A stretch of DNA of 64,000 nt from an uncultured Actinomycetes bacterium (GCA_963761365.1 CAVXHB010000018.1:61-64060), one strand, 5' to 3'. Shown: positions 1 through 64,000, numbered from the stretch's first letter. Program-made: numbers and translations. Notes: generated by a model from the letters alone, not told the origin.

Positions 1-281
1 CCGATCCTGTGGCCCCGCTGGTCCCGCCGCTCCCGCCGGTCCGCGTGGGCCGGCCGGTACGACCGACGCCGGGAACTTGCGATTCGATCCGAGCGCGAGC
101 AGTTGGCCGGCCTTTGGTGTCTTCGACGCCTTGATATTGTCGTCGACGGTGCCTGCGTTCTTCGCAAATAGAGGTATGCCTGCAGGTTCTCCTTCTTCGC
201 CGCCTCGCTGATGGATGTCGATCCCATCACGGCCACGACGAGCGCGACCACTGACAGGATGATCGGTACACGCTGCTTCAT
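1..281 (-). CDS. secreted collagen-like (Gly-X-Y) repeat protein, 5' part only (runs off window start)
   Basis: ATG at 281-279 behind a GAGGGGG RBS. Signal peptide MKQRVPIILSVVALVVAVMG. After one frame change near 170 it reads FAKNAGTVDDNIKASKTPKAGQLLALGSNRKFPASVVPAGPRGPAGAAGPAGPQ. Confidence 0.5.
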   Translation of the reverse strand, partial: MKQRVPIILSVVALVVAVMGSTSISEAAKKENLQAYLYLRRTQAPSTTISRRRRHQRPANCSRSDRIASSRRRSYRPAHADRRERRDQRGHRI

Positions 282-335
282 GATCTTGCCCCCTCTCTTG
301 ACGGGTTTGTCGCCTGCGGTAAACGGAGACCAATA

Positions 336-842
336 TTGGCAAAGCAGCTCCGGCCATGTGCGCTAGAGCCGCAAACCGCAGGAGACGTCGGCGTCATGCG
401 CGGCGTCGACTGCACGTCCAGCTTCCGTTCATTTAACAATGCCCGGTCATCGAGCATTTGGGGGCGGCGGTGGCAGTTTGATTTCTCGCAGGTCGAGCGG
501 TCGAGCGGCCGTGTCACGGTCGAGAACTTGAGCCCGGGCCGCGCCACTTGGTCGGGCAGCTTCTTTGCCCCGCTCGAGGCACTCTCAGCGGACGGTCTGG
601 ATAGCGGCCGATTCACTAAGTACACGCGCGCGCGAATAGCAGAAAACGCCACTTCGAGTGGCCGAGCACCGCGACGCTCTTACCGTCTGACTGGCCTCAT
701 CACTGGCGCCGTGTTCTTCTTTCTGTTCGGTCTGCGTCTCCTGCTGGGTACCCGCTGGGGTGGCGAGGTCGTCGCTTGGATTTTCGGTCTCGTAGCCGTT
801 GCTGGACTCGTGCTCGCGGTAATCGCGGCAACCCACAAGTAG
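336..842 (+). CDS. hypothetical membrane protein (weak call)
   Basis: 168-aa ORF. The last 50 aa form two hydrophobic helices (LTGLITGAVFFFLFGLRLLL, VVAWIFGLVAVAGLVLAVIAA). No family recognised. Lies in the A/T-richer island and may be non-coding. Confidence 0.25.
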   Translation: MAKQLRPCALEPQTAGDVGVMRGVDCTSSFRSFNNARSSSIWGRRWQFDFSQVERSSGRVTVENLSPGRATWSGSFFAPLEALSADGLDSGRFTKYTRARIAENATSSGRAPRRSYRLTGLITGAVFFFLFGLRLLLGTRWGGEVVAWIFGLVAVAGLVLAVIAATHK

Positions 843-1443
843 CTGTCGCCTAGTTCGATTCCCATCGCCTATTAGACGAACTGCTGGAAAGGTGACGGCC
901 GGTCCGCGGCTTCACTCGCACCTGTGTGCTCACGCTTGGTGCCGGCAGCGCATTGCGGAGCACCTCGAAAACTTGGTCAGAGTCCAAGAGCGTTCTCGCT
1001 GGTCTCAGGATCTCTAGACCGGAACTGACAGCTACCGCTCACGGACGCGACGATTCAGTACACTAGGGAGGAGCCTGCCGTCCGGATCGAGAGGTGACAA
1101 CACGACGATGCGGGTCGATGATCCAAGCCTGTCTCCCAGCCAAATTTGATCGGAGCGTGCTCCTCCTCGCGGCCTTGTTCGCTGGCAGCACACGCTGACA
1201 GGGCACGAACTGGGTCGATCTCCGGCGATGCGTAAGTTGGTGCTCAGCGCGTCTATCGCGCTCGGCTTCGCGCCATCGGCACTTGCGACGAAGTGCTGGC
1301 CATCATCGAGGGAGGACGTGACGCATTCCAGACAAGGAGACGCCGCTATCGACTCGAGACCTGAGCTAGGAGCCTCTTGAGGCTAAGGGGCGAGTCATGA
1401 TTAGGTTGCGGAGTCGGAAACCCTGAAATCATCCTTCGATCTC

Positions 1444-2037
1444 GTGGATCCCAACACGATTATCGGCGTTGTAGGCGGCTTCGGGGTCTCAATCGTCCTC
1501 TGGTTCTTAACAGTTAAGTGGCTGGTCGCTCGGATCGCCATCTCAAAGGTGCTCTACGAACAGAAGGACAACAAAGGAGTGCGTCGGTTCTGGATCACGA
1601 CTAAGAATACGAGCTTCCGCGACGCAGTTGATGTTGTCGTCAAATGCACGCTCTATTCAACCGGATGGGGGAATGGAGATGAGGCTGTCATCGCAACGAT
1701 CGATGTCCCTGTCTCGACGGGGCAGATCGACATCCTGCCCCTGGAAGGCTCCGTCTTTCAAGAAGACGGACGAAAATGATGCCCAGGGGTCTCGGCTCGT
1801 CGAACTGCGCTTCGATCAGATCAGCGATTTCCAGCGACAGAAGCTGACACCCAAGCAGCGCCAGAGTCTGGAACGGCGCCAGTCAGGATTCGCGGAAATC
1901 GCTGGTCTGCGGGTGAGGAGTCTTTCCTAGCCCTGGTGGTATATGCCTACGATCGATTCAGCGGGAGCCGAAGAGTTTTCACGTCGCAGGAGTTCACACC
2001 GGAAGATGTCAGGCTGGGATTCCCGGTCGACGACTGA
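1444..2037 (+). CDS. hypothetical N-terminally membrane-anchored protein (frame-disrupted as sequenced)
   Basis: ORF 1444-1779 opens with the TM helix IIGVVGGFGVSIVLWFLTVKWLV. Reading continues in two other frames (KKTDENDAQGSRLVELRFDQISDFQRQKLTPKQRQSLE, then LVVYAYDRFSGSRRVFTSQEFTPEDVRLGFPVDD, stop 2035-2037). No family recognised. Confidence 0.4.
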
Positions 2038-2368
2038 CTGGGAGCGTCGATGCTCGGCGGACAAGCCCCAGTCGTCTCTCCTTGCGCGGCTCGACGGTTT
2101 TCTTTGTCGTCTGAGTGACTACCTGTCTAATCAGCTGAGTTGAGCAAGAAGGCAGCGAGGATTGGTCGAGAGCGCGAGAGACCCGAGTGCGTTCCTGTTG
2201 ACATGCATGCCGTTGGCCTAAGAGCTACCTGTGCTTCTTGCGTGACCCGCGCATTCAGGTTTCCTGTGCATCGCGAAGACGTGTGCGAGCCTGTCTCTGG
2301 TGACACAAATGAAGTTTGTCCGCGAGCGGCGCTAGTGTTGTCGACGTAGATCAACGAAGGAGTTAGCG

Positions 2369-4201
2369 TTGAAAGCGCCTCTCTACTCGTTCGCATCGTT
2401 CGTGGCGGCGGACCAGACGGCGAAGATCGCCGCGGTCTCCGATGCCAAGAACCCTGCGGCCTACGACGTTTGAGCCGATTGGTGGAAGCAACTACGCGAG
2501 TTCATTCCGCGTAATCACAAGATGGGTGGTCTCGAGACCAAGCTCGCTAGAATTCACCAAGACGGTCACCCAACGGAAGCAAAGCGGTTACGGCGATCGT
2601 GTGGCCGCCTACAACAAGTGGTGGGGCAAGAACGTCATCAAAGGGGCAATCGGCGCTCCCACGACTTCGTATGGTCAGGACTCGATGTAACCGTGAACCC
2701 TGAGCTCTTTCTATCTGTAAATGAGTTCGGCACATCATCAAGCTTTACTTCAAACAGTCCGAGAAGCTTGGCGGCAGGGCGAATGTCGTCCTGCGACTCA
2801 TGGAGCTCAAGTATCGGAAGGGATCCTCTCCGACGGGTACATCTGTGGTCGCTATCTTTGATCTTGCCCAGCCAGTTCATCGTTCCGATCGTTTCTTTGG
2901 CGTATTTTTCGATCCGCTTCTCGCCGGGGAAGCGAGCGTCATTTGCCACGATTTGGCCCTCGGCGTAGAAGGGGTTTACCGCACGTTTGCGCCTGGCATG
3001 GAGATTGATTCGGTGCTTGATCAGTTCGACATCGCTCAAGAGAATCTTGGGCGGCTCAAGTCCGTATGGGAACGCCTTGAGAAGCTCGTGCCAACTGGGA
3101 TTGCGTTTCTCGGGCCTGATGATGAACGGCGACTGCAATATGACGACCTGGTTCGTGCTTATGGTGATCTCGCCCACGAGCTTCCTCCGGTCGAGGGCTT
3201 TCGTGTTCAGTCCAGCCCGCTCAGCCTAAGTGAGATAGCTCAGGCTCGGCTAGATGCAGCAGAGATAAGCGAGTTTGAGGTTGAGTTGCGCATGGAGCAA
3301 GAGCGCGGGCTGCCGGCCGAGGAACTTGCTGAGTACGAATACAAGTTCAACAAGGCGCGAAGACGGCTCATTCGTCATCGCGTGATGGCTTTAGTCGAAG
3401 AAATCGATGCGCTTACGCTCGCATTGGGTGCGCGAACAGATCGAAGCAACGAACCGATTGTGGGCTCAGATGGGACCGACTTCGTGAGGCGATCCCAGAG
3501 CTTGAGCGTTTGATCGGCGGCATCGTGACTCGCGAGGGGAGGTGGCGTGAACTCTCGCGTCATCTCGCGTGGGCGCAAGAGATCGATGCACAAGATATTG
3601 CCGACCACGATTGGCCGTCTGTGAGACAGGATGTCCTTTCAGCCTTATACGCGGACATCGAACCTTTGCCGAGTGCAGGTCTTGATCTTGATGTGTTGTC
3701 GCGATCCGACCCTCAGGGGAGCGTCACCACATCGCTTGCGTGGAATGCGTTAGGCCCCGAGGACTTCGAGCGCCTCATCTACAACCTGCTCTCATCCGCG
3801 GGGGGTTGGGAAAATGCGCGCTGGCTCACAAAGACGAACGCTCCCGACCGTGGCAGGGACCTCTCGGTGGAGCGCGTGGTTGACGATCCGTTGATTGGGA
3901 CGACTCGTCAGAGAGTGCTTGTTCAGTGCAAGCATTGGTTGACGAAATCGATCGATGTTGCCGAAATGGCGAACGCGGTCGCGGCAACTTCGCACTGGGA
4001 GCCACCACCCATCGATGTCCTGATTGTTGCGACGAGTGGTCGGTTCACCATCGACGCCGTCGCGTGGACTGACGCTCACAATCGAGACCGGAAGCGGCCC
4101 ACTCTCGAGATATGGCCAGAAGTCACCTCGAGTCGTTGATCGCGCGTCGGCCCCAACTTCGGGCGGCGTTCGGCCTTACGGCTCCAAACGTGCCGGATTA
4201 G
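2369..4201 (+). CDS. large protein with unrecognised N-terminal module and C-terminal Mrr-cat / PD-(D/E)xK restriction-endonuclease domain (frame-disrupted)
   Basis: GAAGGAG RBS 6 nt before TTG 2369. The C-terminal third has nuclease blocks FERLIYNLL, APDRGRDLSVERV, RVLVQCKHW, DVLIVATSGRFT and the tail IWPE/SHLESLIARRPQLRAAFGL (stop 4199-4201). The N-terminal ~380 aa (VNPELFLS, IIKLYFKQSEKL, long helical EISEFEVELRMEQERGLPAEELAEYEYKF) are not recognised. Several frame changes are needed. Confidence 0.55.
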
Positions 4202-4672
4202 CGCGGTAGCTGACGTTCGCCCGTGACAAGCCCGTACTTGGGCGGTCGAGTGCCTATGCAGGGTCCCTTCATCCTCGAGCTGCGGGGCTTGAAACGTGTC
4301 AGCATCGTGTCAGCAATTGCGGTCTCCAACGAGGAAACGTGGGTCGAAGCGTCGGAACGAGAAATCGGCGATGTGCAGGGAGCTGTCCAGTCCGGTCGAT
4401 CCCTGTCGGAGCTGGGGATAGGCTCGACAAGCTGGGGGTTACTGGTTCGAGCGTGCCCTGCTCAGCGGGCCTGCCCACCTCTTCGCACGGCCTGGTACCG
4501 ACACGCCCCGTTTTCGGATCCGTGCTCTCCGCCGATCTCTGAGTGCGATCACCTCCCGGCGCGGCGGCCGGCTGCACGCAAATTTGACCAAAACTTGACC
4601 ACGGCGAGTTATCTACAGGTTTCCGCGGCCATCTGGAAAACACAAAGGGCGTGTTTGCAGGCCTTTTCTAAA

Positions 4673-4745
4673 TGGAGCCAGGCGGGCTCGAACCGCCGAC
4701 CTCCTGGGTGCGATCCAGGCGCTCTCCCAGCTGAGCTATGGCCCC
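4673..4745 (-). tRNA. tRNA-Ala (anticodon CGC)
   Basis: 73-nt cloverleaf GGGGCCATAGCTCAGCTGGGAGAGCGCCTGGATCGCACCCAGGAGGTCGGCGGTTCGAGCCCGCCTGGCTCCA. It has the G3:U70 Ala identity pair and anticodon loop AUCGCAC. CCA is not encoded. Confidence 0.95.
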
Positions 4746-4768: not shown

Positions 4769-5444
4769 CTACGCGGCGAACAGGGTCAGCTCGGGTTCGC
4801 GCTCGCCGCGGAGAACGGCGAGGTCGACCTCGACGCAGCGGATACCCCGCGACTCCGCGAGCGTCACCGCCTGCGGCTTGCACTGCTGCGCCGCGAGAAT
4901 GCCGCGGCATTCGACCTTCGCCGGGTCGATGCGGATGCACTCGAGATAGCGGGTGAGCTGCTCGACCGCGTCGATCGTCGCGATCCGCTTGATCTCGACG
5001 GCGACCCAGCCAGCGTCTGCGTCCCGGCACATCAGGTCGACGGGCCCGACGTCGGTCGGCCACTCGCGCCGGTCGAGCCGCAGGCCGGGCTCGAGCGTTT
5101 CCGGCAGCGCCGCAAGCGCCTCCTGCAGGTCACGCTCGACACCGTCCTTCTCGAGCGGCGCCGCTTCGCCCATCTCGTGCTCGACGTCGGAGAGCACTTC
5201 GTGGAGCCGGATCTCGAGGCGGTCTTCGCTCCGGCCGGCGCGCTTGCGGACGACGATCACGCCGTCGCCTTCCTCGATCACGGTCGGCGGCGTCATCCAG
5301 TTGAGCGGCTCGGTACCCGCCGGCGTCGGCGTGCACGAGCACCGAGCCGTCGGCCTTGATCATCAGCAGGCGCGTCGACTCGGGCAGGTACGCGGTCAGG
5401 CGGCCGGTGTAGGTGACCTCGCAGCGGGCGACGAGCAGGCGCAC
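4769..5444 (-). CDS. nucS: endonuclease NucS / EndoMS (one frame change near 5300)
   Basis: N-terminus [44 protein letters not shown] (ORF 5130-5444). C-terminus [41 protein letters not shown] (ORF 4769-5296). Confidence 0.85.
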
Positions 5445-5473
5445 CGCGTCACCCTACTGTCCTTTTCGGACAG

Positions 5474-6100
5474 TTAGACGCGGCGGATGAGGGTCATGCC
5501 GTCGCGCACGCTCAGCATCACCTGCACCGACTCGCGGATCGGCGGCGACGTGGTCGTTGAAGCGCGACGATCGGCCTCTCGCCGTCCAGCACGCGGCCGC
5601 TCCAGAGCGTGTTGTCGGCGACGATCAGCCCGTGGTGCGTCAGGCGCGGCAGCACGGCCTCGTAGTAGTCGACGTAGCCCTCCTTGTCCGCGTCGATGAA
5701 GACGAAGTCGAAGTCGCCCTCGAGTGCGCGATCGTCTCCAGCGCCGGGCCGAGGTGGAGCGTGATCCGCGTGCCGTACGGGCTGCGGTCGAAGTAGCGCT
5801 GCGCAACCGCGGCGCGCTCGGGGTCGATCTCGCACGTGTCGATGCGCCCGTCCTCGGGAAGCGCACCTGCCATCGACAGCGCCGAGTGGCCGCTGAACGT
5901 GCCGATCTCGAGCACGCGCTGCGGCCGTCCGAACCAGACGAGCATCTCGAGGAAGCGGCCGGCGACCGGGCCGGTCAGCATCTGCTCCGAGCCGAGCGCG
6001 GTGCGCGTCTCTTCCGACGAGCTCCGCGAGCAGATCGTCGTGCGGCGAGGTCAGCCGCTCGACGTACTGCCTCGATCTGCGGGTCGAGGATGTCGGCCAC
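5474..6100 (-). CDS. class I SAM-dependent O-methyltransferase (family 3, caffeoyl-CoA OMT-like), frame-disrupted
   Basis: [65 protein letters not shown] and [14 protein letters not shown] sit in four different frames. GTG 6100 overlaps the upstream stop (TAGTG). Confidence 0.75.
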
Positions 6101-6771
6101 TAGCCCTCGCGCTCGACCGACGAGCCGGCGACGATCGCGTCCTCGCCGTCCTCGTAGCGAACCCACGCCTTCCCGTTGCCGTCGTAGTCGGGCCCCCAGG
6201 CGATCAGTGTCGCGTCGCGCCCACCGGCGGTGACGCGTTCGGTCCCTTCCGGTTCGTCCCCTCGCCAGACGCGCACGAACGGATTCAACATCCACTCGCG
6301 TCCGATCGAGGTGATGTCGCTGTGGCCAGGCAGGACCCGCCGGTCGTGCGGCATCGTCATCAAGACGTCCATCACGTCGGTCTTCACCTGCGCGAAGTCG
6401 CCGCCGCCGATCGAGTCCTTGAAGAGCACGTCGCCGGTGGCCACGAGCTCGTCGCCGGCCGGGTCGACGATCACGAAGCAGACGCCGTCCTCCGAGTGAC
6501 CCGGGGTCGGGATCGCCTCGATCTTCAGCCCACCGGTCTCGAATGACGTCGTCATCACCGGCAGGTCGAGGTCGTCCTCGTGCTCGATGTGGTCGTGGTG
6601 GGAGTGGGTGCGGAGAATGTGCGTCAGCCGCAGGCCCTGGGTGGTCGCGAATTGGAGCAGCGGCGTGACCGGGGCGCCCGAGTCGATGATCACCGCCGCG
6701 CCGCCGCGGCCCTCGCCCACGACGAAGGCATTCGAGAGGTAGCGGGGATGCATGCTTCTCGTCAGCAGCAC
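6100..6771 (-). CDS. MBL-fold metallo-hydrolase
   Basis: Intact 223-aa ORF with the HSHHDH metal motif and a later PGHS. The start may be the internal MHPRY at 6753. Confidence 0.8.
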   Translation of the reverse strand: MLLTRSMHPRYLSNAFVVGEGRGGAAVIIDSGAPVTPLLQFATTQGLRLTHILRTHSHHDHIEHEDDLDLPVMTTSFETGGLKIEAIPTPGHSEDGVCFVIVDPAGDELVATGDVLFKDSIGGGDFAQVKTDVMDVLMTMPHDRRVLPGHSDITSIGREWMLNPFVRVWRGDEPEGTERVTAGGRDATLIAWGPDYDGNGKAWVRYEDGEDAIVAGSSVEREG

Positions 6772-6788
6772 GGGCGGTAGGCTACAGA

Positions 6789-7547
6789 GTGCAAACCCGC
6801 TCCTGGGAGGAACAGATGCCCGGCTTGGTTGGACGCACGATGGTGATCATCAAGGCGAAATTCTCGCGGCTGCTCGACCACGCCGAGAATCCGTCGGAGA
6901 CGCTCGACTACTCCTACGAGGAGCAGCTGCGCCAGCTTCAGAACGTCAAGCGGGGAATCGCCGACGTGGCGACGGCCAAGAAGCGGCTGGAGCTTCAGTA
7001 CACCTCGATGCAGCAGCAGGTGGACAAGCTCGACGGCCAGGCGCGCGACGCCGTCACGGCGAACCGCGAGGACCTGGCCCGCGAGGCACTCACGCGCAAG
7101 GCGGCGATCCAGGGCCAGCTCCAGTCGATCATGGAGCAGGGCCAGCAGCTCGAGGCCCAGCAGCAGAAGCTCGTCGACGGCGAGAAGACGCTGTCGTCGA
7201 AGGTCGAGTCGTTCCGCACGCAGAAGGAAGTGATCAAGGCGCAGTACTCGGCCGCCGAGGCGCAGGTGAAGATCGGCGAGGCCGCGACCGGGATCGGCAG
7301 CAACATGGCCGACGTGGGGGCCGCAGTCGAGCGCGCGAAGGACAAGACCGCGCAGCTCCAGGCGCGCGCCGCGGCAGTCGACGAGCTGACCGCAGCAGGA
7401 ACGCTCGACGACTTCACCTCGTCCGACGACGACATCGACCGCCAGCTGAAGCAGATCTCGCAGAGCGGCCAGGTCGACGACGAGCTCGCGAAGATCAAGG
7501 CCGAGGTCGGCAAGGGCGCGGAGCCCGCGAAGGAGATCCAACCGTAG
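6789..7547 (+). CDS. pspA: PspA/IM30 family protein
   Basis: Intact ORF with coiled-coil sequence AKFSRLLDHAENPSETLDYSYEEQLRQLQNVKRGIADVATAKKRLE. The start among 6789, 6816 and 6840 is unresolved. Confidence 0.85.
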   Translation: MQTRSWEEQMPGLVGRTMVIIKAKFSRLLDHAENPSETLDYSYEEQLRQLQNVKRGIADVATAKKRLELQYTSMQQQVDKLDGQARDAVTANREDLAREALTRKAAIQGQLQSIMEQGQQLEAQQQKLVDGEKTLSSKVESFRTQKEVIKAQYSAAEAQVKIGEAATGIGSNMADVGAAVERAKDKTAQLQARAAAVDELTAAGTLDDFTSSDDDIDRQLKQISQSGQVDDELAKIKAEVGKGAEPAKEIQP

Positions 7548-7552
7548 GGCCG

Positions 7553-8809
7553 TTGTTCGGCGGCCGTACATTCGCGAGCCTTCGCAAGCATCGCAACTAC
7601 CGGCTCTACTTCGCCGGACAACTCATCTCCGCAAGCGGCACGTGGATGCAGGACACGGCGTTGCCGTGGCTGATCCTTCAGCGGACGCACTCGCCGGTGC
7701 AAGTCGGTCTGCTGCTCTTCTGCCGGTACCTCCCGTTCTCGCTGTTTGGCCTCTATGCCGGCGTCCTCGCGGACCGCTTCGACAACCGCCACATGATGAT
7801 GGCGACGCAGACCGCGTCGATGAGCATTGCCGCCGGGCTCGCCACGGTCACGCTCCTGCACGGCCCGATCGCTCTGGTGTACGTCCTCGCGGCGTTCGGC
7901 GGCACGGCGGTCGTTTTCGACGCGCCGAATCGCCAGTCGCTCACCTTTCGCCTCGTCGGTCGTGCAGAGCTGCCAAATGCCGTCGCGCTCAACTCGAGCA
8001 TCTTCAACTCCGGCCGCGTGATCGGGCCCGCGCTCGGCGGCATCATCATCGCAGCTGCGGGCGTGGGCTTCTGTTTTGCGCTGAACGCGGTGTCGTTCCT
8101 GGCGGTGCTTGCAGCGCTTGCGCTGATGCGCCCGCGCGAGTTCTACCCGCTCGACCGGCGCGGCTCGCGCGCACGGGGGGCAGGCGCGATCCGAGAGGGA
8201 CTCGGCTACGTCCGTGCGAATCGCAGTCTGCGACTGATCGTCGGGGCGGCGGCGGTCGTGGGTCTCATCGGTTTCAACGTCCGCGTGCTGATCCCGGTGC
8301 TCACGGCGAAGACGCTGAAGGCCGGCCCGCACACGCTCGGCGTGCTCTTCGCGTGCTTCGGCCTGGGCGCGCTCGCCGGTGCTCTCATCACCGCTTCGGC
8401 GGAGCGCCCGCGCTGGCGGCGGTCGCTTGCCGGGCTCGGTGGTCTGGGAATCGCCCTGATCGCGATGGCGTTCCTCCAGACGGTTTGGGCGGCGGGCGCG
8501 CTGCTCGCAGTCGTCGGGATCTCGTTCTCGACCTGGTCGGCGACGAGCCAAACGATGCTCCAGCTGACTGCGCCCGATGCGCTTCGCGGCCGCGTCGTCA
8601 GCCTGTACCTCCTCGTCTTCGGCGGCTTCAGCCCGATCGGCAGTCTGCTTTCAGGTTGGCTCGCCGACATCGGCGGAACACGGCTCGCGTTCCTCGCCGC
8701 GGGCGGAGCGGTATCGGCCACCGCCGTCTACGACGCACTCCGAATTCGCGGCTTCAAGGCAGAGGAGCCACGCGGCCGGCCGACGGAGTATGTAGAGCCG
8801 CCGGTTTAG
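7553..8809 (+). CDS. MFS transporter (enterobactin-exporter-like subfamily)
   Basis: TTG 7553 lies just after the pspA stop. Reads FGGRTFASLRKHRNYRLYFAGQLISASGTWMQDTALPWL followed by about 12 TM segments. The first 800 nt of track ORF 6752-8809 are out-of-frame read-through of pspA. Confidence 0.8.
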   Translation: MFGGRTFASLRKHRNYRLYFAGQLISASGTWMQDTALPWLILQRTHSPVQVGLLLFCRYLPFSLFGLYAGVLADRFDNRHMMMATQTASMSIAAGLATVTLLHGPIALVYVLAAFGGTAVVFDAPNRQSLTFRLVGRAELPNAVALNSSIFNSGRVIGPALGGIIIAAAGVGFCFALNAVSFLAVLAALALMRPREFYPLDRRGSRARGAGAIREGLGYVRANRSLRLIVGAAAVVGLIGFNVRVLIPVLTAKTLKAGPHTLGVLFACFGLGALAGALITASAERPRWRRSLAGLGGLGIALIAMAFLQTVWAAGALLAVVGISFSTWSATSQTMLQLTAPDALRGRVVSLYLLVFGGFSPIGSLLSGWLADIGGTRLAFLAAGGAVSATAVYDALRIRGFKAEEPRGRPTEYVEPPV

Positions 8810-9420
8810 ATCGGCAGGTCGTACAACGCGAGCCACCGGGTCAGGTCGGGCTCGATCGGGAGCTCTTCTTCGAGCTTCGCCTTCAGCTCGAGCTCGGTCG
8901 CGTTGTCGCGGTTCTGCCCGTCACCGGTCGGGATGAACGGCCACCATTTGCCTCGCTTGAAGCCGTAGATCCAGTAGACGGGATTCTTCGCGTCGCCGAA
9001 GTTGCCACCGTCGAAGCGGAACGGCGCGGCGAGCAGCTGCCCGCCGAATCCCTGTGCGGTCAGCTCGCTGGCAACCGCGTACACGGCGGTGACCTGGTCC
9101 TCGATGTCCTTGTCGTGGATGATCACCCACTCGAAGCCGTACTTGTCGGTTTTGCGCTCGACCTCGCCACCCGACGAGCGTGCCGCCGATTTGACGAGCG
9201 AATCGGTGTCCGTATCCACCCGTTCGAAGTCGCCCGACGACAGCGACTTGTACGTCACCGCGCCGACGCCCGCTGGGTTTAGACCGAGCTCGGTCTGCAG
9301 CGTCACGCACGCGGTCGTGAGCGCGAACAGCGCGTCTTGGTCTGGCGCCTTGAGCTTGTTGCGCCCGAAGAGAACGTTTCCGAGCCCCATATCGTCAGCG
9401 TAGCGTGGGGCCTGGGGCAA
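8806..9420 (-). CDS. PspA-associated protein, PspAB-like (conserved actinobacterial hypothetical)
   Basis: Intact ORF. Probable start MGLGNVLFGR at 9390. Blocks DALFAL, GFGGQLL and RDNATELELKAKLEEELPIEPDLTRW resemble the PspAB family as I remember it. Sits beside pspA. Confidence 0.55.
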   Translation of the reverse strand: MPQAPRYADDMGLGNVLFGRNKLKAPDQDALFALTTACVTLQTELGLNPAGVGAVTYKSLSSGDFERVDTDTDSLVKSAARSSGGEVERKTDKYGFEWVIIHDKDIEDQVTAVYAVASELTAQGFGGQLLAAPFRFDGGNFGDAKNPVYWIYGFKRGKWWPFIPTGDGQNRDNATELELKAKLEEELPIEPDLTRWLALYDLPI

Positions 9421-9475
9421 GCGTCAGACAAAACTGATCCTCAAAGACTACGGGCGTACGACCGATACAGAAGCG

Positions 9476-9661
9476 ATGACCCTGAGAGACGCGCTTTCCA
9501 TCGCAATTCCCGCAGTCGCGCTCGTCGTTCTCTTCGCTGCGCCGGGCGAACTCCGCTGGACCCGTCGCCCATGGTTCATAAAAGGGCCGCCGCGTCGCCG
9601 TTCTTTCGCCGCGTTCTTCGCGGCCCTTCTTGTTATCGCCGTCACGCATACGCTCTACTGA
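9476..9661 (+). CDS. possible small two-TM membrane protein
   Basis: 61-aa ORF with two hydrophobic stretches (IAIPAVALVVLFAA, FAAFFAALLVIAV) in an otherwise empty 290-bp gap. Confidence 0.3.
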   Translation: MTLRDALSIAIPAVALVVLFAAPGELRWTRRPWFIKGPPRRRSFAAFFAALLVIAVTHTLY

Positions 9662-9710
9662 GCTCGAAGACAAGCTAAGCCTCGGTGGCCGTGTCTGGCC
9701 GGTGCTCCCT

Positions 9711-10007: not shown

Positions 10008-10094
10008 GAGTCTTCCCTCCTCATCGGTGTTGACCGGCCACTGCGGACGATCTGGAACTGCTGCGCGAGCGCGACTGGCACGGCTGCGCCGTGC

Positions 10095-13473: not shown

Positions 13474-13479
13474 TGCGTC

Positions 13480-14709: not shown

Positions 14710-14731
14710 CGCGAGGCTAGGATCGTGCCAC

Positions 14732-14819: not shown

Positions 14820-14838
14820 CTCGTTCCTCCGACCGTGG

Positions 14839-24490: not shown

Positions 24491-24515
24491 AGTCGAGCAT
24501 TCGTGCGGTTCGAAA

Positions 24516-49065: not shown

Positions 49066-49066
49066 G

Positions 49067-50144: not shown

Positions 50145-50196
50145 CTCCCCTCACCTCCGGGTCGATTGCCATTAAGACGGATCCGCGGCCTGAAAG

Positions 50197-53816: not shown

Positions 53817-54778
53817 CGGAGCAGCTCCTCGACCTCGCTTGAGCTCGAGCACGCCTTGCGCGTTCGCCGTCGTCGCCGATGACGAGCACGCGGTCGGCGG
53901 CCGCTCCCGACCATCAGCGAGAGCGCGTTCCTGAGCGTCGTCGTCACTGTCACGCGCGGCATGTCCCGGCGACTGTCCCTGGACATGGCTCAATGGGACA
54001 TCGCCGACACGGCGCAGCGCGAGGCGGCGCAGGGCGCGGTCTTCGCCGATGAACTGCTCGACGAACGTGTCGGCCGGGTGCGCGAGGATCGCGTCCGGCG
54101 TGTCGTACTGGGCAAGCCTGCCGCCCTCGCGCAGGATCGCGATCCGGTCGCCCATCATGATCGCCTCGTCGATGTCGTGGGTGACGAAGATGATCGTCTT
54201 CGCGACCGCTCGATGGAGCCGGCGCACTTCGAGCTGCAGCCGGTGACGCGTGATCGGATCGAGCGCGCCGAACGGCTCGTCCATCAGCAGCACCGGCGGG
54301 TCGGCCGCGAGCGCCCGCGCCAGGCCGACGCGCTGGCGCTGGCCGCCGGAGAGCTGCGCCGGATAGCGCTTGGCGTCGCCCTGCTCGAGCCCGACGAGCT
54401 CGATCAGCTCCGCGACGCGCGCCTGGATGCGCGCCTTTCCCCAGCCGAGCAGGCGCGGCACGGTGGCGATGTTCTCGCCGACCGTCATGTGCGGGAAGAG
54501 GCCGGCCTGCTGGATCACGTAGCCGATCCCGCGCCGCAGCTCGACGGCCGGGAGCTCGCGGACGCTGCGTCCGTCGATGCGGATGTCGCCGGAATCGAAC
54601 GAGATCAGGCGGTTGACCATCTTCAGCGCCGTCGTCTTGCCGCCGCCCGACGGCCCGACGAGCACGCAGAACGTGCCTCCGGGGATGTCGAGCGACAACT
54701 CTTCGAGCGCATGATCCTGGCGGCCCGGATAGGTCTTCGACACGCGGTCGAAGACGATCTGCTCCGTGCGCCGCTCAT
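53813..54778 (-). CDS. osmoprotectant ABC ATP-binding protein (frame-disrupted, CBS-type tail)
   Basis: ATG 54778 overlaps the MFS stop (ATGA). GPSGGGKTT, LSGGQRQRVGLARAL, LLMDEPFGALD, FVTHD. Tail VLVIGDDGE...LELSEVEELL. Confidence 0.85.
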
Positions 54779-56176
54779 GTTGCGTTGCGTCGGTTCGTGA
54801 TGCCGACGAGCCCGGTCAGCCCGCCGACCGCGATCAGCCCGGCCGTGATCGCCATCGAGAGGCGATAGCCGTGCAGGTCGAGGCTCGTTGCCCGATCCCG
54901 CGATCGCGGCGCCGACGGTTGCGATGCCGATCAGGCCGGCGATGCGCGCGATCGCATTGTTGACGCCGGAGGCGATGCCGGCGTCGCGCTCGCCGGCGTC
55001 GGCGAGCACGGTCGAGGTCAGCGGCGCGACGATCAGCGAGAGGCCGACCGCGAAGATCGAGCAGCTGCGGCAGCAGGGTCGTCCAGTAGTCGAAGCCGGG
55101 CGAGAGCGTGCGCATCCAGAGGAGGGAGGCCGCGCAGATGAGCGGTCCGATCCCCATGAACCAGCGGGGACCGATCCGCATCGACAGCCGGCCGACGCGC
55201 GGCGAGAGAACGAACATCACGACCGTGATCGGAACGGTCGCGAGCCCGCTTCGGAACGGCGAGTAGCCGGCGAGCTGCTGCAGGAAGATGACGAGGAAGA
55301 ACGTCAGCGTCGAGAGCGCCGCGTAGACGGTGAACGTCTCGAGGTTCGCGAACGTGAAGTTGCGCAGGCGGAAGAGCCGCAGCGGCAGCATCGGGTCGGG
55401 GTGATGCGAGCTCCCAGACGACGAACAGCCGCGAGCAGCGCGATCCCACCGATCAGCGTCGCCAGGATCAACGGGTCGGAGAAGCCGCGTTTCTGCGATT
55501 CGATCAGCGCGAACACCGGCCCGCCGAGCCCGAGCATGCCGAGCAAGCCGCCGACGACGTCGACGCGCACCCGCTCGCGCGTCATGTCGCGGCCCGGAAG
55601 CGAGATCCGCACGATCGCGAGGGTGGCGATCACGAACGGGATGTTGATCACGAAGATCGAGCGCCACGACCCGACCGAGACGAGCCAGCCGCCGACGAGC
55701 GGGCCGATCACGAACGAGATCCCCGTCCAGGCCGTCCACGTGCCGATCGCGGCTCCGCGCTCCTCGCCCGAGAAGTTCGACGTGATCGTCGCAAGCGCGG
55801 CCGGCGTGAGCAGCGCGCCCGCGATTCCCTGCAGCCCGCGGGCGACGATCAGCTCTGGGCCGTTCAGCGAAACGGCGCAGAGGACCGACGTGACGCCGAA
55901 CACGGCCACGCCGATCTCGAAGATCCGCTTGCCGCCGAAGATGTCGCCCAGCGAGCCGCCGACGAGGATCAGTGAGCCCAGGGTGAGCAGGTAGGCATCG
56001 ACGACCCACTGCTGCAGCACGAGCCCACCGCCGAGATCGCGCTGGATCGCGGGCAGGGCGACGTTCACGACCGTCGAGTCGATGAAGACGACCGTCGAGC
56101 CGAGGATGCACGCCACGAGGATCAGCCGCTTGCGTGTCGAGTCGCTCAGGTGGCTTAATACTTCCATGGGAGACAC
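54775..56176 (-). CDS. DHA2 (EmrB/QacA-type) MFS transporter, frame-disrupted
   Basis: FIDSTVVNVALPAIQRDLGG, LGSLILVGGSLGDIFGGKRIF, ARGLQGIAGALLTP, 14-TM layout. Start is GTG 56176 or ATG 56167. Confidence 0.8.
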
Positions 56177-56562
56177 CTACACGATCAAAACGCTGGCGGA
56201 CGTGCCCGACATCCTGGGCGACTACCCGGGCGAGATGCAGTTCTTCACTCCGGAGCTCGGCAACGAGCAGGTTGCCTTCACCTACCGTCGGATGCCGCAG
56301 CATACGGGCGGCAAGGGCGGGTATGGCCACTTTCACAAGCAGCAGGAGGAGGTCTACTTCGTCGTCTCGGGGAAGCTCCAGTTCAAGCTCGACGACGAGG
56401 TGATCGAGGCGGGGCAGGGGCACCGCGATCCGGGTCGCGCCCGAGTGCGTCCGCTCCGTCTGGAACGACGAGCCCGAGGATGCCGAGCTCGTGATCGTCT
56501 CGACCCGCAGCGAGGATCCGCGCGAAGACACCGAGCGGGTTCCGGACTTCTGGCCGGCGTGA
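56166..56562 (+). CDS. cupin domain protein (frame change near 56410)
   Basis: MGDTYTIKTLADVPD...GYGHFHKQQEEVYFVVSGKLQFKLDDEVIEAGQG, then AIRVAPECVRSVWNDEPEDAELVIVS. Confidence 0.65.
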
Positions 56563-57281: not shown

Positions 57282-58354
57282 GCGCTCGTCGCCGTCCGCA
57301 GGCCGGCGTGGCCGGTGCGCGGGCCGAGCGCAGTGGAACGGCTCGGGCTCGCGGCCGCCTTCGATGCAGTCCGCGACGTATTCGGCGAGCGCAGGGCCGT
57401 GCTTGAACCCGTGACCTGAGCCGCCGCCCAGCAGCCACCATCCGGGCTGCTCGGGGTGCCGGTCGAAGAGAAAGTGCGAGTCGAGCGGTCAGGTCGTACT
57501 GGCAGACGCGGGCGCCGATCAGCGGTGCGCCGGCGAGCGCAGGGAACCGCTTGCGCGACGTAGCTGCGCGCGAGTGCTTCGCTCGCGGGATCGGGCAGCC
57601 GCTCGAGCTGGTCCGGGTCGATCTCGACCCCGGGCCCGTCGTAGGAGGTCTTGAGCCCGAGCCCTCCGAGCTCGCCGTGTCCGTAATACGGGCCCTCGTA
57701 GTCGCAATAGCCTGGCGTGCCGGACCAGCTGCCGTCGACGCCGAAGAAGAAGACGTCGCGACGCGAGATCCGTTGTTGCACCAGTGCGGGGAACAATCCG
57801 GGGAGCCAGGCGCCGCAGGCCCAGACGACGATGTCGGCGCGCGGCGGGTCGATCGGCGTCGGTCGTCCGGTCTCGACGCGCAGGTTGCGGACGAGGCAGC
57901 GCGTCGCACGACGCGCGAACAAGACGCCGGCGCCGGGCTCGAGCAACACCGAGCGCAGATCGTCTCCGCCGAGGGACGGATAGAGGTGCTGCGCGTCCTC
58001 GGGCGTGAGGCGCTCGCACGCGATGCCGAGGCGACTGAGCGTCGCCTCGCTCTTTCGCGTGAAGTCGTCGTCTCCCGTCTCGAACCACGCGACCCCGACC
58101 GGTTCGAAGAGCTTCATCCCCGTCTCCTCCTCGAGCTCGAGCCACAGCTCAAGCGCGCGACGCGCCATCAGCGTGTACCAGTCGACGTCGCCGTGCGAAA
58201 ACCGGAGCAGGCGCGTGTCGCCGCCCGACCCCGAGCGCACGTTGCCGGCTGCGTACTGCTCGACGACGCGCACGTCCCAGCCGCGCCGGGCAAGCTCGCG
58301 TGCGGTCGACGCTCCGAAGACTCCTGCGCCGACGACGACCGCGGTGCCAGACAC
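57278..58354 (-). CDS. FAD-dependent oxidoreductase (DAO / sarcosine-oxidase-like), frame-disrupted near the 3' end
   Basis: [29 protein letters not shown] (GxGxxG), then [19 protein letters not shown] in a shifted frame. Confidence 0.75.
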
Positions 58355-58363
58355 GCGTGAACC

Positions 58364-59056
58364 CTAGATCGCGGCCCGGAGGCTGCGCACGTACTCCCGC
58401 AGCGCGGCCGGGCCCTCTTCGGCGACTTGCACCGCGCGTGAGCCCACGACGACGCCGTCTGCCAACTCGGCCACAGCCGCCGCGTGTGCGGGCGTGGAGA
58501 TGCCGAAGCCGGCGTAGAGCGGCTTGTCGGTCAGCGCCCGGGTGCGCTCGACGAGCCCGGCGAGCGCGGGGGAGACCTCGTCGCGCGTTCCCGTCGTTCC
58601 CGTGAGCGAGACGAGGTAGAGCCAGCCGTCGGTGTTCGCCACGCACGTGGCGATTCGCTCGTCGGTCGAGGTCGGCGCAACGAGCTGGATCCGCGGCACG
58701 TCTGCATGCTCCTCCACCGGCAGGTCGACGACGATCGCGCTTGTTGCGCCGGCCGCCCGCGAGTCCGTGACGAAGCGCTCGTAGCCGTACGCCTCGAGGA
58801 TCGCCGCGTAGGTCATCGGCACGAGCGGGACATCGACGCGCTCGCGCACGGCCGCGATGCACTCGAGACATTCCTTCGTGCGCATCCCGCGAGCGAGCGC
58901 GCGCTCGGATGCGAGGCGGATCGTCGGGCCCTCGGCGAGCGGATCGGAGAACGGGATGCCGAGCTCGACGATGTCGGCGCCGCCCTCGACCGCGGCCTCG
59001 GCGAGCTCGGGCGTCTCCGGCTCGCACACGAGGTAGATGACGAGTTTCTTGTTCAC
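58364..59056 (-). CDS. trpA: tryptophan synthase alpha chain
   Basis: Reads in one frame: [36 protein letters not shown] overlaps the trpB stop. Confidence 0.85.
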
Positions 59057-60174
59057 GCGCGCGCGAGGACCTCGGCGCAGGTCCTTGTCGCCGCGGCCGG
59101 AGAGGCAGACGAGGACGAGCTCTGCGTCGAGGTCGAGCGCGCGCGCGAGCGCGTGCGAGCTCTCGAGCGCGGGGATGATCCCCTCCGTCTTGCGCGAGCC
59201 GGTGGAAGGCGGTGAGCGCCTCTTCGTCGGTGCACGGGAGGTAGGTCGCGCGGCCCGAGTCGCGCAACGCGGCGTGCTCGGGGCCGACGCCGGGGTAGTC
59301 GAGCCCGGCGGAGATCGAATGCGCGTCGGCGATCTGGCCGTCGTCGTCTGCGAGCACGGACGAGCGCGCGCCGTGGAGCACGGCGGTCCGGCCGGTGCCG
59401 AGGCTTGCCGCACCCGCGGCTTCGACGCCGACCAGCCGCACGTCTGGATCGTCGGAGGAAGCCGTAGAAGATCCCGATCGCGTTCGAGCCGCCGCCGACG
59501 CACGCGACGACCGCCTCGGGCAGGCGGCCCTCGGCCGCGAGGAACTGCTCGCGCGCCTCGTCGCCGATCACGCGCTGCAGGTCGCGGACGATCTCCGGGT
59601 ACGGCGCCGGGCCGACGCACGAGCCGATCAGGTAGTGCGTCGTCTCGACGTTCGTGATCCAGTCGCGGATCGCCTCGCTCGTCGCTTCCTTCAGCGTCTT
59701 CGTCCCGAACTCGACCGGCCGCACCTCGGCACCGAGCAGGTGCATCCGCTCGACGTTCGGCTTCTGCCGGCGCATGTCCTCGGCGCCCATGTAGACGACG
59801 CACTCGAGGCCGAAGCGCGCGCAGACGGTGGCGGTGGCGACGCCGTGCTGGCCGGCGCCCGTCTCGGCGACGATCCGGCGCTTGCCGAGGCGGCGCGCGA
59901 GCACCGCCTGGCCGAGCGCGTTGTTCAGCTTGTGCGCGCCCGGTGTGCAGCAGGTCCTCGCGCTTGAGGTAGAGGCGCTTGTCGGGCGCGAACCGCTCGA
60001 CGCGCGTCAGCGGCGTCGGCCGGCCGCCGTAGTTCGTGAGCAGCTCGTGCAGCTCGCGATGGAAGGCGTCGTCGGCCTTCGCGGCCTCCCAGCCCGCGGT
60101 CAGCTCGTCGAGCGCCGGAATCAGCGTCTCGGGACGTAGCGGCCGCCGTAGGCGCCGAAGGTGGTGGTCGTCAT
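59053..60174 (-). CDS. trpB: tryptophan synthase beta chain (frame-disrupted)
   Basis: [72 protein letters not shown]. Confidence 0.9.
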
Positions 60175-61325
60175 CGCGCTGCCTTTCACCCACGCGCGCA
60201 CGGCGTCGTGGTCCTTGATTCCCGGCTCGAGCTCGGTCGACCGCGCCGAGTCGACCGCCCACGGACGGATGCTGTCGATCGCCGCGCGCACGTTGCCCGG
60301 GTCGAGGCCGCCCGCGAGCATGACGCGGCCCGGTGTCGTGCGCGCGCGCTCGAGATGGGTCTCGTCGGTCGCGCTCCCACGGCAGGTCGACGACGGTGCC
60401 GACCCGTTCGCCGTTGTACGCGCAGCACGCCGTCGCGCGCGCGGTGGCCGTTCTCGCGCTCGTAGAACTGCACGACGTCGGCGCCGGTCTCGTGCTCATC
60501 GCCGACGAAGACCGCGACGCGAAGCACCGTGTCCGGCGCGTCGAGGAGCTCGTCGGTGCGGCGTGGGCTCTCCTGCGCGAGGATGAAGCCGACGAGGTCG
60601 GCGCCCGCGTCGACCGCGACGTCGACGTCCTCCTGGCGGGTCAGCCCGCAGACCTTGACGAGCGGCCGCGAGATCAGCTCGGCGAGCTTGGCGCCGGGAT
60701 CGGTCGCGCGCATCAGCGTCGAGCCGACGAGGATCGCGTTCGCGCCGGCGAGCTCGGCGGCCGCGCCCTGCGCGCGCGTCTCGATCGCCGACTCGGCGAT
60801 CACGATCCGGTCGCGCGGCGCACGCGCGAGCAGCGCGAGCTGCGCGCGCGCGGTCGATGTGGAACGTGGAGAGATCGCGCGCGTTGACGCCGATCACCGG
60901 CGCGCCGAGCTGCGTCGGCGCGAGCGAGCTCGGCCGCGTCGTGCGCCTCGACCAGCGTGTCGAGGCCGAGTGCCTCCGCCTCACGCATCAGTGTCAGACA
61001 CTGCGCATCGTCGAGGTCGCGCAGGATCAGCAGCGCCGCGTCGGCGCCCGCCTCGCGCGCCGTGCGCAGATGTTCCGCGGTCGAGAAGAAGCCCTTGGCG
61101 AGGAGCGGCAGCGAGGTCGCCGCGCGCGCGGCGCGCAGGTCGTCCCACGAGCCGGCGAAGCGCTCGTCGACGAGCACCGACATCGCACGCGCGCCGGCGC
61201 GCTTCGTACGCGCGCGCGACGGCGGCGGGATCGCCGTCCGGGCGCAGGTCGCCGGCCGACGGCGAGCGCCGCTTGAACTCGGCGATCGCGCCGAAGCCAT
61301 CGCGCAACGAGTCAGCGAACCTCAT
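60171..61325 (-). CDS. trpC: bifunctional indole-3-glycerol-phosphate synthase / phosphoribosylanthranilate isomerase (TrpC-TrpF fusion), frame-disrupted
   Basis: TrpC: IAEFKRRSPSAG, MSVLVDERFAGS, LLAKGFF, VIGVNARDL, IAESAI. It runs without stop or start into TrpF: LVKVCGLTRQEDVDVAVDAGADLVGFI...LAGGLDPGNV...AVDSARSTE. Confidence 0.8.
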
Positions 61326-61374
61326 GTGGAAAACCTGTCGCAGTTCCGTAGCGATGCCTGGCACCGGCCATGTC

Positions 61375-62399
61375 TCATTTCGACACGCCCGCTCGGGAGA
61401 AGGCGATCAGGGCATCGAGCCGTTCGGCGGCGGCGCCCGAGTCGAGCGCCTCGCGCGCGAGCTCGAGCCCTTCGCGCAGGTCGTCGGCGTGACCGGCCGC
61501 TGCGATTGCGCCCGCGGCGTTGAGCAGGATCGCCGAGCGGCGCCCGCCGTTGCCGCCCTGCGAACACCTCGCGGATCTTCGCGGCGTTCTCGTCGGCGGT
61601 GCCGCCGCGGAGCTCCTCGGGGTCGCAACGCTCGACGCCCAGGTCGAGCGGGTCGATCTCGCGGCGACGCACGTCGCCGTCGACCACCTCGTACACGAGG
61701 TTCGGCCCGGTGGGCGAGAGCTCGTCGATCCCGCCCGCGCCGTGGACGACGAATGCCCGCCGCGCGCCGAGCGCCGCAAGCACATCCGCGATCACCGGCA
61801 CGAGCAGCGGTGAGTAGACGCCGACGATCTGCGCGCGCGCGCCGGCCGGGTTCGTCAGCGGTCCGAGCACGTTGAAGACCGTGCGCGCCGCGAGCTCGCG
61901 GCGCACCGGGCCCGCGTGCTTCATCGACGGGTGGTGCGTCGGCGCGAACATGAAGCCGAACCCGAGCTCGTCGATCGACTGCGCGATCCGCTCCGGTGCG
62001 AGCTCGAGCTCGAAGCCGAGCGACTCGAGCACGTCGGCAGATCCTGACTGCGACGACACCGAGCGGTTGCCGTGCTTCGCGACGCCTGCGCCGGCGGCTG
62101 CCGCGACGAGCGCCGCCGCGGTGGAGATGTTGAACGTCTTGCCGCCGTCGCCGCCGGTGCCCGCCGTGTCGACGAGGTCGTCGCGCTTTGCGTTGACCGG
62201 GAGCACGTGCGCGCGCATCGCCTCCGCGCAACCGGCGATCTCGTCGGCGGTCTCGCCCTTCAGCCGCAGCGCGACGAGGAAGCCGCCGATCTGTGCCGGC
62301 GTCGCTTCGCCCGACATGATCGTGTTCATCACCTCGCGCGCCTTGTCGCGCGCCGAGGTCACGGCCTTCGAGCAGCTCGTTCAGCGCGTCCTGAATCAT
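61375..62399 (-). CDS. trpD: anthranilate phosphoribosyltransferase (frame changes at both ends)
   Basis: [63 protein letters not shown], tail LDALIAFSRAG. Confidence 0.9.
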
Positions 62400-62963
62400 C
62401 TGCGCTCCCGAGGAAGTTCTTCGCGAGGTCGCGCCCGACCGGCGTCAGCACCGACTCGGGATGGAACTGCACGCCGTCGACCGGCAGCTCGCGATGGCGC
62501 ACGGCCATCACCTCGCCGTCGGCCGCAGTCGCCGAGATCTCGAGGCAGTCGGGGATCGTCGTCGCCGCGAGCGAGTGGTAGCGGCCTGCGAGAAAGTCCT
62601 CGGGCAGCCCGGCGAAGATGCCGCGTCCGTCGTGCGCGACCATCGTCGCCTTGCCGTGCACCAGCGCCTGCGCGGGGCCGACCTCGCCGCCGAAGGCCGC
62701 AACGATCGCCTGATGCCCGAGGCAGACGCCGAGCGTCGGCACGCGGCCGGCGAAGGTGCGCACGATCTCCTCCGACACGCCCGCCGCCTCTGGCCGACCG
62801 GGCCCGGGCGAGATGACGACGTGCGACGGCGCCATCGCCTCGGCTTCGCCACCGTGATCTCGTCGTTGCGCCGCACCACGACCTCCGCGCCCAGTTCGCC
62901 GAACAGGTGCGCCAGGTTGTACGTGAACGAGTCGTAGTTGTCGATCAAGAGCACCGTCGCCAT
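62397..62963 (-). CDS. trpG: anthranilate synthase component II (glutamine amidotransferase), frame-disrupted
   Basis: [35 protein letters not shown] (catalytic Cys), [14 protein letters not shown] junction with trpE. Confidence 0.9.
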
Positions 62964-64000
62964 CAGCCGGCCTCCGCGAGGTCGATCGCGGTCTCGAGCG
63001 CGGCCAGCTTGCGCAGGCACTCCTCGTGCTCGGCGGCCGGGTCGGAGTCGGCGACGATCCCCGCCCCCGCCTGCAAGAGCGCCACGCCGTCGTGCAGCAC
63101 GATCGTGCGGATCGAGATGCATGCATCGAGCACACCGCCCGGAAGCGCGTAGAGCACCGCTCCCGCGTAGGGGCCGCGGCGATAGCCCTCGAGCTCGGAG
63201 ATGATCTGCATCGCGCGCACCTTCGGGGCGCCCGAGACGGTGCCCGCCGGGAAGCACGCGCGCAGCAGGTCGAAGCCCGTGATCCCCGCGCGCATTTCCC
63301 CTGCGACCTCCGACACGAGGTGGGTGATGTGCGAGAAGCGCTCGGCTTCGAGGAACCGTTCGACCTTGACCGTGCCGGGCACACAGACGCGCGAGAGATC
63401 GTTGCGGCCGAGGTCGACCAGCATGACGTGCTCGGCGCGGTCCTTGTCGGACGAGAGCAGACGTTCGGCGTCGCCTTCGCCCGGGCGCGTCGAGCCCGCG
63501 ATCGGGTTGAGCGACGCGCGCGTGCCCTCGCATTTCACGAGCGTCTCGGGGGACGAGCCGACGAGCGCGATCCCGTCGAGCTCGAGCAGGAAGAGGTACG
63601 GCGACGGGTTGACGTGGCGCAGCGAGCGGTAGAGCGCGAGCGCCGAGACGCTGGTCGGCCGCTCAGCGCGTTGCGACAGCACGATCTGGAACGCGTCGCC
63701 CTGCCGGATGTAGTCCTTGCAGGCGCGCACGCCCGCCTCGTACTCGGCCTGCGAGGGGAAGCGGCGTGTCGGCGAGGGAGCTGCGTGTTCAGGCGGCGGA
63801 GGCGGCATCGGGTGGTTGAGCAACCGCGCCGTATCAACGAGGTCACCGCGAAGGATTTCCGCCTGGCCTCGGACATGGTCGAAGCGAACCAGCGTGTCCG
63901 CCACGACGAAGCGGCTCTCCGGCAGGCCCCGCCCATCGGCCGGCAACGGGACTGTTGGCTCGAGCTTGGCAGCGAAGTCGTAGCCCAGGTAACCGACGAC
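62963..64000 (-). CDS. trpE: anthranilate synthase component I, 3' two-thirds (5' end beyond window)
   Basis: Uninterrupted frame to the window edge: [59 protein letters not shown]. Confidence 0.9.

Follow-up and report, generated by a model that had tools for sequence, protein, structure and literature searches.

The DNA considered here is a 64,000-nt stretch of a contig, about 65.7 kb long, from an uncultured Actinomycetes bacterium (GCA_963761365.1, CAVXHB010000018.1:61-64060), referred to below, at its full length, as the window. Its G+C content is about 69%. Among one-genome-per-species contigs, the best matches to its NadA are from Gaiellaceae metagenome-assembled genomes (MAGs), with at most 84% amino-acid identity, and the source is a soil actinobacterium like the Gaiellaceae or Gaiellales. 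An initial annotation, made from the sequence alone, described the reading frames as densely and patchily disrupted, with broken essential genes lying next to uninterrupted multi-kb blocks. The subject of this report is these frame disruptions, which we attribute, with high confidence, to errors of the deposited consensus and not to mutations of the organism.

To delineate the reading frames, we used a tracker based on codon-position G+C (GC3), which cut the window into 152 segments and revealed many same-strand frame switches. Each segment was translated in its own frame, the translations were joined by an X at each junction, and the stitched products were searched with Pfam profiles. They match these profiles end to end, as single stretches that run across the junctions: Hydrolase_3 over 1-252 of 255 positions, NadA over 1-294 of 295, QRPTase_C over 1-169 of 169, KdpA over 78-548 of 548 and KdpD over 2-210 of 210. 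The families recovered are Hydrolase_3, Seryl_tRNA_N with tRNA-synt_2b, DMFA2_C, BTAD, SIR2_2, nSTAND1 and Na_Ca_ex between 11 and 24 kb; the FAD domain of NadB, both NadC domains, NadA, KdpA, KdpC, the KdpB domains and KdpD at the nad and kdp loci; AAA_3, DUF58, MFS_1, ABC_tran and BPD_transp_1 between 43 and 56 kb; and IGPS, PRAI, PALP (TrpB), GATase and Glycos_transf_3 (TrpD) among the trp genes. Because the matches cross the junctions, the frames are truly interrupted within conserved domains.

The window was then compared with relatives at the DNA level. For 4.7-21 kb, the reference was a set of twenty JGI Illumina metagenome contigs (L081-L100), which are collinear with the window at 94-95% nucleotide identity; many JGI metagenome contigs carry a copy of HtpX 99% identical to that of the window. 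For 26-62 kb, we used about 20 syntenic loci, rising to 69 around nadA, whose DNA identity is 75-80%, and 80 metagenome loci were also compared over the opu genes. In this second region we followed the cumulative alignment offset modulo 3, and a change common to nearly all relatives was counted as specific to the window. An ENA contig carrying a 99% identical DUF1345 protein (L101) was tried as a further reference and rejected: its DNA is only 86-91% identical and itself gap-rich, and its naming is Flye-style.

Over the 49.4 kb comparable with relatives, at least 176 small insertions and deletions (indels) are private to the window, about 3.6 per kb. The dense and patchy disruption first described is thus borne out, and was understated. 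The disrupted stretches, called dirty below, and their features are as follows.

4769-6100, minus strand: dirty stretch with nucS and an O-methyltransferase, aligned to JGI contig L091
4769-5444, minus strand: nucS, one extra base; intact in L091 (224 aa)
5474-6100, minus strand: O-methyltransferase (Methyltransf_3), four extra bases and one missing; intact in L091 (207 aa)
11053-14435, plus strand: densest dirty stretch, about 1.4% indels, each set against all covering Illumina contigs (6-19, fewer along the stretch)
11053-11450, plus strand: cytochrome c, 8 inserted nt; relatives intact (129 aa)
11514-12279, plus strand: Cof-type HAD hydrolase; relatives intact (253 aa)
12276-13473, plus strand: serS, 14 inserted and 7 deleted nt; relatives intact (396 aa)
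13473-14435, plus strand: Tricorn/PD40 protein, within the densest dirty stretch
14732-14820, plus strand: tRNA-Ser(UGA), 89 nt versus 88 nt in relatives (ARAGORN and alignment)
14839-21626: dirty stretch of lower density, five genes from a methyltransferase to nSTAND-WD40
14839-15309: methyltransferase, no indels
15416-16334: polysaccharide deacetylase, one indel; relatives intact (305 aa)
16331-17672: DMFA2_C protein, 10 inserted nt; relatives intact (443 aa)
17774-19437: SARP-SIR2, 5 inserted nt; relatives intact (552 aa)
19434 to about 21626: nSTAND-WD40, at least 3 indels; relatives intact (1047 aa)
22609-23651, minus strand: cax (Na_Ca_ex), in three frames with junctions near 23090 and 23412
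32050-46400, plus strand: dirty block, Pfam matches crossing the junctions, with nadB, nadC, nadA, the kinase half of kdpD with kdpE, kdpA, kdpC, kdpB, the sensor half of kdpD, a MoxR AAA gene, DUF58 and VWA
38533-38535, plus strand: in-frame TAG in kdpA (relatives TGG or TAC)
46301-46303 and 46325-46327, plus strand: two in-frame TAGs in the VWA gene (relatives TCG and AAG)
48804-56416, minus strand: dirty block of moderate density, from Pfam and offset changes common to 3-80 relatives, with a BNR protein, a MoaD-like open reading frame (ORF), an MFS transporter, an opu-type ABC ATPase, two permeases and an OpuAC binding protein
57300-62000, minus strand: part of the trp operon and neighbours (trpC, trpF, trpB, trpA, an FAD oxidase-like gene and trpD), about 18 events, almost all +1
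62.0-62.96 kb, minus strand: trpG and the start of trpD, junctions by frame tracker only

The genes hit are therefore serS, nadB, nadC, nadA, kdpA, kdpC, kdpB, kdpD, trpC, trpF, trpB, trpG, trpD, the opu genes, cax, SARP-SIR2, STAND, the O-methyltransferase and nucS. Window-specific offset changes number about 50 in 32.0-46.4 kb and again about 50 in 47-62 kb; those of the first block are common to nearly all of the 13-69 relatives compared (67/69, 51/51, 17/17 and 14/14, for example). The initial annotation had listed nadB, nadC, SARP-SIR2, STAND, trpB, trpD and the opu genes as broken, and the DNA comparison agrees, adding nadA; for cax, likewise listed, the evidence is the frame tracker plus a Pfam match to the stitched translation only. 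For the O-methyltransferase, where it had counted four frame changes, the DNA alignment gives 4 inserted bases and 1 deleted base, and for serS, where it had counted five or more, 14 inserted and 7 deleted nt; the three indels it had noted in kdpA appear as +1 events at about 37455, 37507 and 37542, each against 15-17 of 17 relatives. The operon junction signatures, which it had described as kept, are present (ATGA/TGAATG).

Two further observations concern these stretches. The kdp locus (35203-42740) has the order kdpD kinase half, kdpE, kdpA, kdpC, kdpB, kdpD sensor half; this A-C-B order and the split KdpD are suggested too by the gene list of L101, and both rest on junctions within a dirty block. 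At the tRNA-Ser(UGA), the additional nucleotide is one G in a D-loop segment (GGCCGGAG versus GGCC-GAG in relatives), and the anticodon stem differs from that of relatives by compensatory changes; the JGI contigs have a 111-aa 'hypothetical' gene call, probably a spurious one, that overlaps this tRNA.

Between the dirty stretches lie blocks that read cleanly.

6100-11018: clean block, no indels in 4152 coding nt versus the JGI contigs at about 94% identity; MBL-fold protein (6100-6753), PspA (6816-7547), MFS_3 (7553-8809), PspAB (8806-9390), a variable segment (9412-10095) and HtpX/M48 (10095-11018)
26113-32026: clean block compared with 9-35 relatives; PAP2-like protein, secreted protein, flavin-reductase-like protein, HAD, XdhC and others
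62963-64000, minus strand: C-terminal part of trpE, a single open frame matching Chorismate_bind over 2-257 of 257 positions

Under a uniform Poisson model, the event-free run at 6069-9412 has P = 7e-6, and the 3 offset changes at 26113-32026, where 21 are expected, have P = 1e-6. No event falls in 58369-59069, over trpA, although 0.7 kb is too short for significance alone, and intact ORFs were seen at 23790-25834, from ORF reading alone. Most of the blocks first reported as uninterrupted thus stood: 6100-11018, with no indel in the MBL-fold, PspA, MFS_3, PspAB or HtpX genes, as well as 58364-59056 and 62963-64000. For 26494-32017, the scarcity of events held, the three changes in 26113-32026 all lying at or near gene boundaries or in spacers. 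Within the first block, the segment between PspAB and HtpX (9412-10095) does not align to any close JGI contig; those contigs carry a different ORF of 204 or 233 aa.

Clean and dirty blocks measure 0.7-14 kb, and the indel density switches between 0% and as much as about 1.4% from one to the next. The edges are sharp: 5 kb without a single indel is followed by 6 inside 200 nt starting at 11163. Such edges and block sizes might be produced by a hybrid or scaffolded assembly, in which clean blocks are short-read contigs or polishable sequence and dirty blocks stem from gaps that were closed with long-read sequence in a raw or lightly corrected state. This, too, would be an artefact. Yet no sequence feature marks a short-read origin of the clean blocks, their G+C range (0.66-0.70) overlaps that of the dirty ones (0.675-0.75), so that a loss of short-read coverage driven by G+C is not evident, and related MAGs with MFD names, Nanopore-only according to their catalogue paper (PMC12313526), are equally patchy without short reads. 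We therefore consider a hybrid assembly unlikely. The same overlap led us to reject G+C content itself as the source of the patchiness.

To determine whether the indels belong to the lineage or to the record, we asked which of them any relative shares. In 67 of the 68 gap clusters found against the JGI contigs, the window stands against most or all of the covering contigs, nearly always every one of them and up to 19 of 19. Compared with one another over 9.5 kb, these contigs show 123 mismatches and not a single gap. Three of the frame-break sites (32113, 33980 and 34655/6) are also covered by Illumina contigs that come from four soil and rhizosphere runs and are at least 96% alike, and these lack the extra base at each. 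No lesion is common to the window and any relative, down to 94-97% identity.

The indels are also out of proportion to the substitutions. Relative to the JGI contigs, the window has 63 insertions and 12 deletions (P = 2e-9), and 68 of these 75 events are of 1 nt. Broken genes have 72 indel nucleotides for 611 mismatches, whereas the clean genes on this contig have 0 for 233 (Fisher P = 4e-10). In mismatches, by contrast with the indels, clean and dirty blocks diverge equally from the JGI population (5.2-6.4%). That is, the clean blocks are not recent imports, and the blocks share one history.

These results bear directly on whether the genes are genuinely decaying. In that case, a very recent mass pseudogenisation, perhaps in an indel-prone mutator, would have placed more than 170 small indels in 49 kb, serS included, and the clean blocks would be segments that intact relatives had lately restored through recombination. 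The deposited sequence does contain the indels, and nucS itself is interrupted. The absence of these lesions from all relatives, the natural indel ratio seen between relatives and in the clean genes, and the equal divergence of the blocks all speak against such an event, and the loss of NucS raises mainly transitions, not insertions, which counts against the mutator idea.

Genuine decay, as in Mycobacterium leprae or in recent host-restricted symbionts, mixes frameshifts with nonsense mutations, deletions and insertion sequence (IS) insertions; it relaxes selection, it recurs in independent samples of the lineage, and it leaves no lone seryl-tRNA synthetase gene in many pieces. The window resembles it in having many conserved genes interrupted by frameshifts, and differs in lacking mixed lesions, relaxed selection and lineage-shared lesions. 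Nearly all changes are +1; neither larger deletions nor IS insertions were found in the window, and no stop made by substitution was found in the 18 genes compared for this. The indels strike housekeeping and accessory genes equally hard (serS being known here from the window alone), and a tRNA gene, too, has its extra base. The sole IS difference seen lies in the relative L091, where about 2.7 kb of IS-type genes (HTH_Tnp_1, rve; 13619-16297 of that contig) separate the O-methyltransferase from nucS, a place at which the window (5444-5477) has none; this segment is a natural structural difference.

Once the indels are left out of account, the broken genes still show the pattern of purifying selection. 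Seventy per cent of their mismatches fall at codon position 3, and the non-synonymous share is 0.31, versus 0.24 when two intact relatives are compared over these genes; under relaxed selection, a neutral share of about 0.7 is the yardstick. Window-private substitutions at conserved columns of a dirty block amount to 1.06%, and the corresponding figures for the relatives range from 0.1 to 2%. We thus judge a genuine mass pseudogenisation very improbable. Its bolder form, in which a free-living Gaiellaceae lineage would be starting an insertion-biased mutational collapse, maybe via its interrupted nucS and too recently for substitutions or secondary decay to have built up, with clean blocks restored by recombination, is one to which we give hardly any weight.

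Some observations nevertheless weigh against consensus errors as the explanation. The non-synonymous share is somewhat higher in broken than in clean genes (0.31 vs 0.14). Three in-frame TAG codons, in kdpA and twice in the VWA gene, each arose by a single substitution, against the at least 176 small indels, and would be nonsense mutations if the genes were decaying; they correct the initial picture of the broken genes, whose indels were confirmed and to which these substitutions must be added. The inserted bases do not follow homopolymers: 45 of 57 are isolated bases, versus 35 expected (P = 0.003). Finally, no reads or assembly of the same strain or sample were found, the best run shares being 0.07-0.30, and no accurate same-strain reads thus contradict pseudogenisation; the nearest accurate sequences are relatives of 94-97% identity, which leaves room for a very recent burst of real insertions.

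The TAG codons would most simply be substitution errors, and by our own estimate their number matches what a small share of such errors would yield in high-G+C coding sequence. Recoding of TAG was ruled out, since the three codons stand for different residues (Trp or Tyr, Ser, and Lys). As to the run searches, the portion at 1-4672 had a run share of 0.07, being present in almost no public run; it has a lower G+C content (57-60%), ends at a tRNA-Ala (4673-4745, minus strand) and looks like a strain-specific island.

The sequence context of the insertions deserves closer attention. The initial annotation had proposed to tabulate the indels against homopolymer runs; this comparison gave no association, although homopolymer errors are the classical mark of Nanopore, 454 or Ion Torrent data, isolated inserted bases exceeding chance, and the longest run within 5 nt of the events was distributed as at random positions. 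Of the 57 inserted bases, 45 are G or C, with G:C = 29:16 (P = 0.07), and the contexts C[G]C and T[G]C are mildly over-represented; no methylation-type or longer motif was found at the insertion sites beyond this preference. Strand-specific runs of G versus C insertions, considered as a sign of single reads, gave z of about -1.5 in a runs test done by hand, which is suggestive only, and were not retained. Of the 52 insertions placed within codons, 43 touch the third codon position, versus the two-thirds expected (P = 0.008).

Both the isolated character of the insertions and their third-position excess would be accounted for if two or more co-occurring, slightly different strains had been merged during assembly, with both alleles of a polymorphic site, mostly a third codon position, kept side by side so as to leave an isolated extra base, and with clean blocks where one strain only was present. 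This is a sub-mechanism of consensus error and no alternative to it. Individual sites look the part. The window has GGGC at 34653-34656, against GGA or GGC in close Illumina relatives, and GCGT at 33979-33981, against GCG or GCT in relatives; and at 37507 and 37542 the extra base lies at a codon whose third base varies between G and C among relatives. These side-by-side third-position alleles suggest that part of the errors may come from collapsed co-occurring strains. There is a precedent in the collapsed diploid assembly of Trypanosoma brucei Tb427, where indel errors are reported to lie near allelic variants and other stretches to be variant-free (PMC8445201). The window would be like Tb427 in showing apparent frameshifts where allelic variants disturb read alignment, clean sequence in variant-free regions and an uneven spread, and unlike it in that Tb427 is a diploid eukaryote, whereas the 'haplotypes' here would be co-occurring soil strains, a mechanism partly supported by the sites above. 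On the other side, 9 of the 52 insertions fall between codon positions 1 and 2, which is unexpected for merged synonymous alleles, and the third-position enrichment is modest and may reflect a context bias of the error process, as in C[G]C and T[G]C. Low depth, or sequence left unpolished, accounts just as well for the sharp edges and the densities of up to 1.4%. We therefore put forward strain collapse only tentatively.

The lack of any homopolymer, slippery sequence or common motif at the sites is also informative with respect to decoding. If the cell bypassed the breaks through programmed ribosomal frameshifting, transcriptional slippage or RNA editing, the correct frame would resume after each break, as it does, and nothing else in the data points this way. 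The sites number 3-14 per kb; they lie on either strand, a tRNA gene and spacers have them as well as protein genes, and all relatives lack them. The likelihood of such decoding is negligible.

The same signature recurs in other MAGs. With MAGs classed from their record names as MFD-named or other (the latter mostly short-read-style), we counted 88 private frame-changing events over 285 kb of MFD-named relatives and 2 over 125 kb of the others (P = 1e-12). The events in the MFD-named MAGs are +1-biased and clustered; in one of these MAGs (L054), 17 events within 4.4 kb are followed by 9.6 kb free of them. Over the nad/kdp region, L054 and four more (L014, L018, L022 and L050) carry clustered +1 frame errors of their own, at 0.6-1.6 per kb, and an alignment of two MFD-named MAGs over 20 kb, 94.5% identical when gaps are ignored, has 103 one-base gaps, 73% of them at isolated bases. 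Errors in the MFD-named relatives indicate that the problem is common in Gaiellaceae-like long-read MAGs. The Microflora Danica long-read catalogue was built from Nanopore data with Flye and one round of Medaka, without short reads; its authors remark on low coding density in some lower-coverage MAGs, and Nanopore-only MAG catalogues depend on Medaka for fewer indels (PMC12313526). A further report describes indel errors of long-read assemblies as pseudogenising genes (PMC12007338). The window shares with such errors of long-read (Nanopore or PacBio) assemblies and low-coverage MAGs the private 1-nt indels, by which conserved genes fall apart into neighbouring ORFs that differ in frame, and an indel-to-substitution ratio far above the natural one. 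It differs from the classical Nanopore signature, given in another source as homopolymer errors (PMC9262707), in that its errors lie off homopolymers, insertions outnumber deletions 5:1, and the density changes stepwise at the kb scale.

Taken together, the privacy of the indels, their spectrum, the indel-to-mismatch ratio, the pattern of selection and the precedent in MFD-named MAGs support the initial attribution to uncorrected consensus indels without pseudogenisation. The process behind them was very probably an assembly of noisy long reads, a platform that we infer, at low or uneven effective depth and with incomplete polishing. Some kb-scale stretches would have kept spurious bases, mostly an isolated extra G or C, with fewer missing bases and few wrong ones, and other stretches would have come out clean. 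Candidate causes of this patchiness are stretches covered by one or a few reads, stretches skipped by the polisher, and collapsed co-occurring strains. Accordingly, of the 'partly polished' consensus proposed initially, the consensus errors stand, and partial polishing is a plausible candidate for the cause of the patchiness.

Anyone using this record will find gene calls and gene ends, pseudogene calls, apparent fusions and splits, and estimates of coding density and completeness unreliable in the dirty blocks, that is, in 4.7-6.1, 11.1-21.6, 22.6-23.7, 32.0-46.4 and 48.8-63.0 kb. Care is needed with readings that depend on a single junction or codon, among them the split KdpD, the three in-frame TAG codons, the SARP-SIR2 fusion and the small MoaD-like ORF. 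Frame errors of this kind in MAGs can be insertion-biased, off homopolymers and block-wise, and homopolymer-aware filters will therefore miss them. For the biology of the organism, the disruptions almost certainly hold nothing new; they matter for the quality of its annotation.

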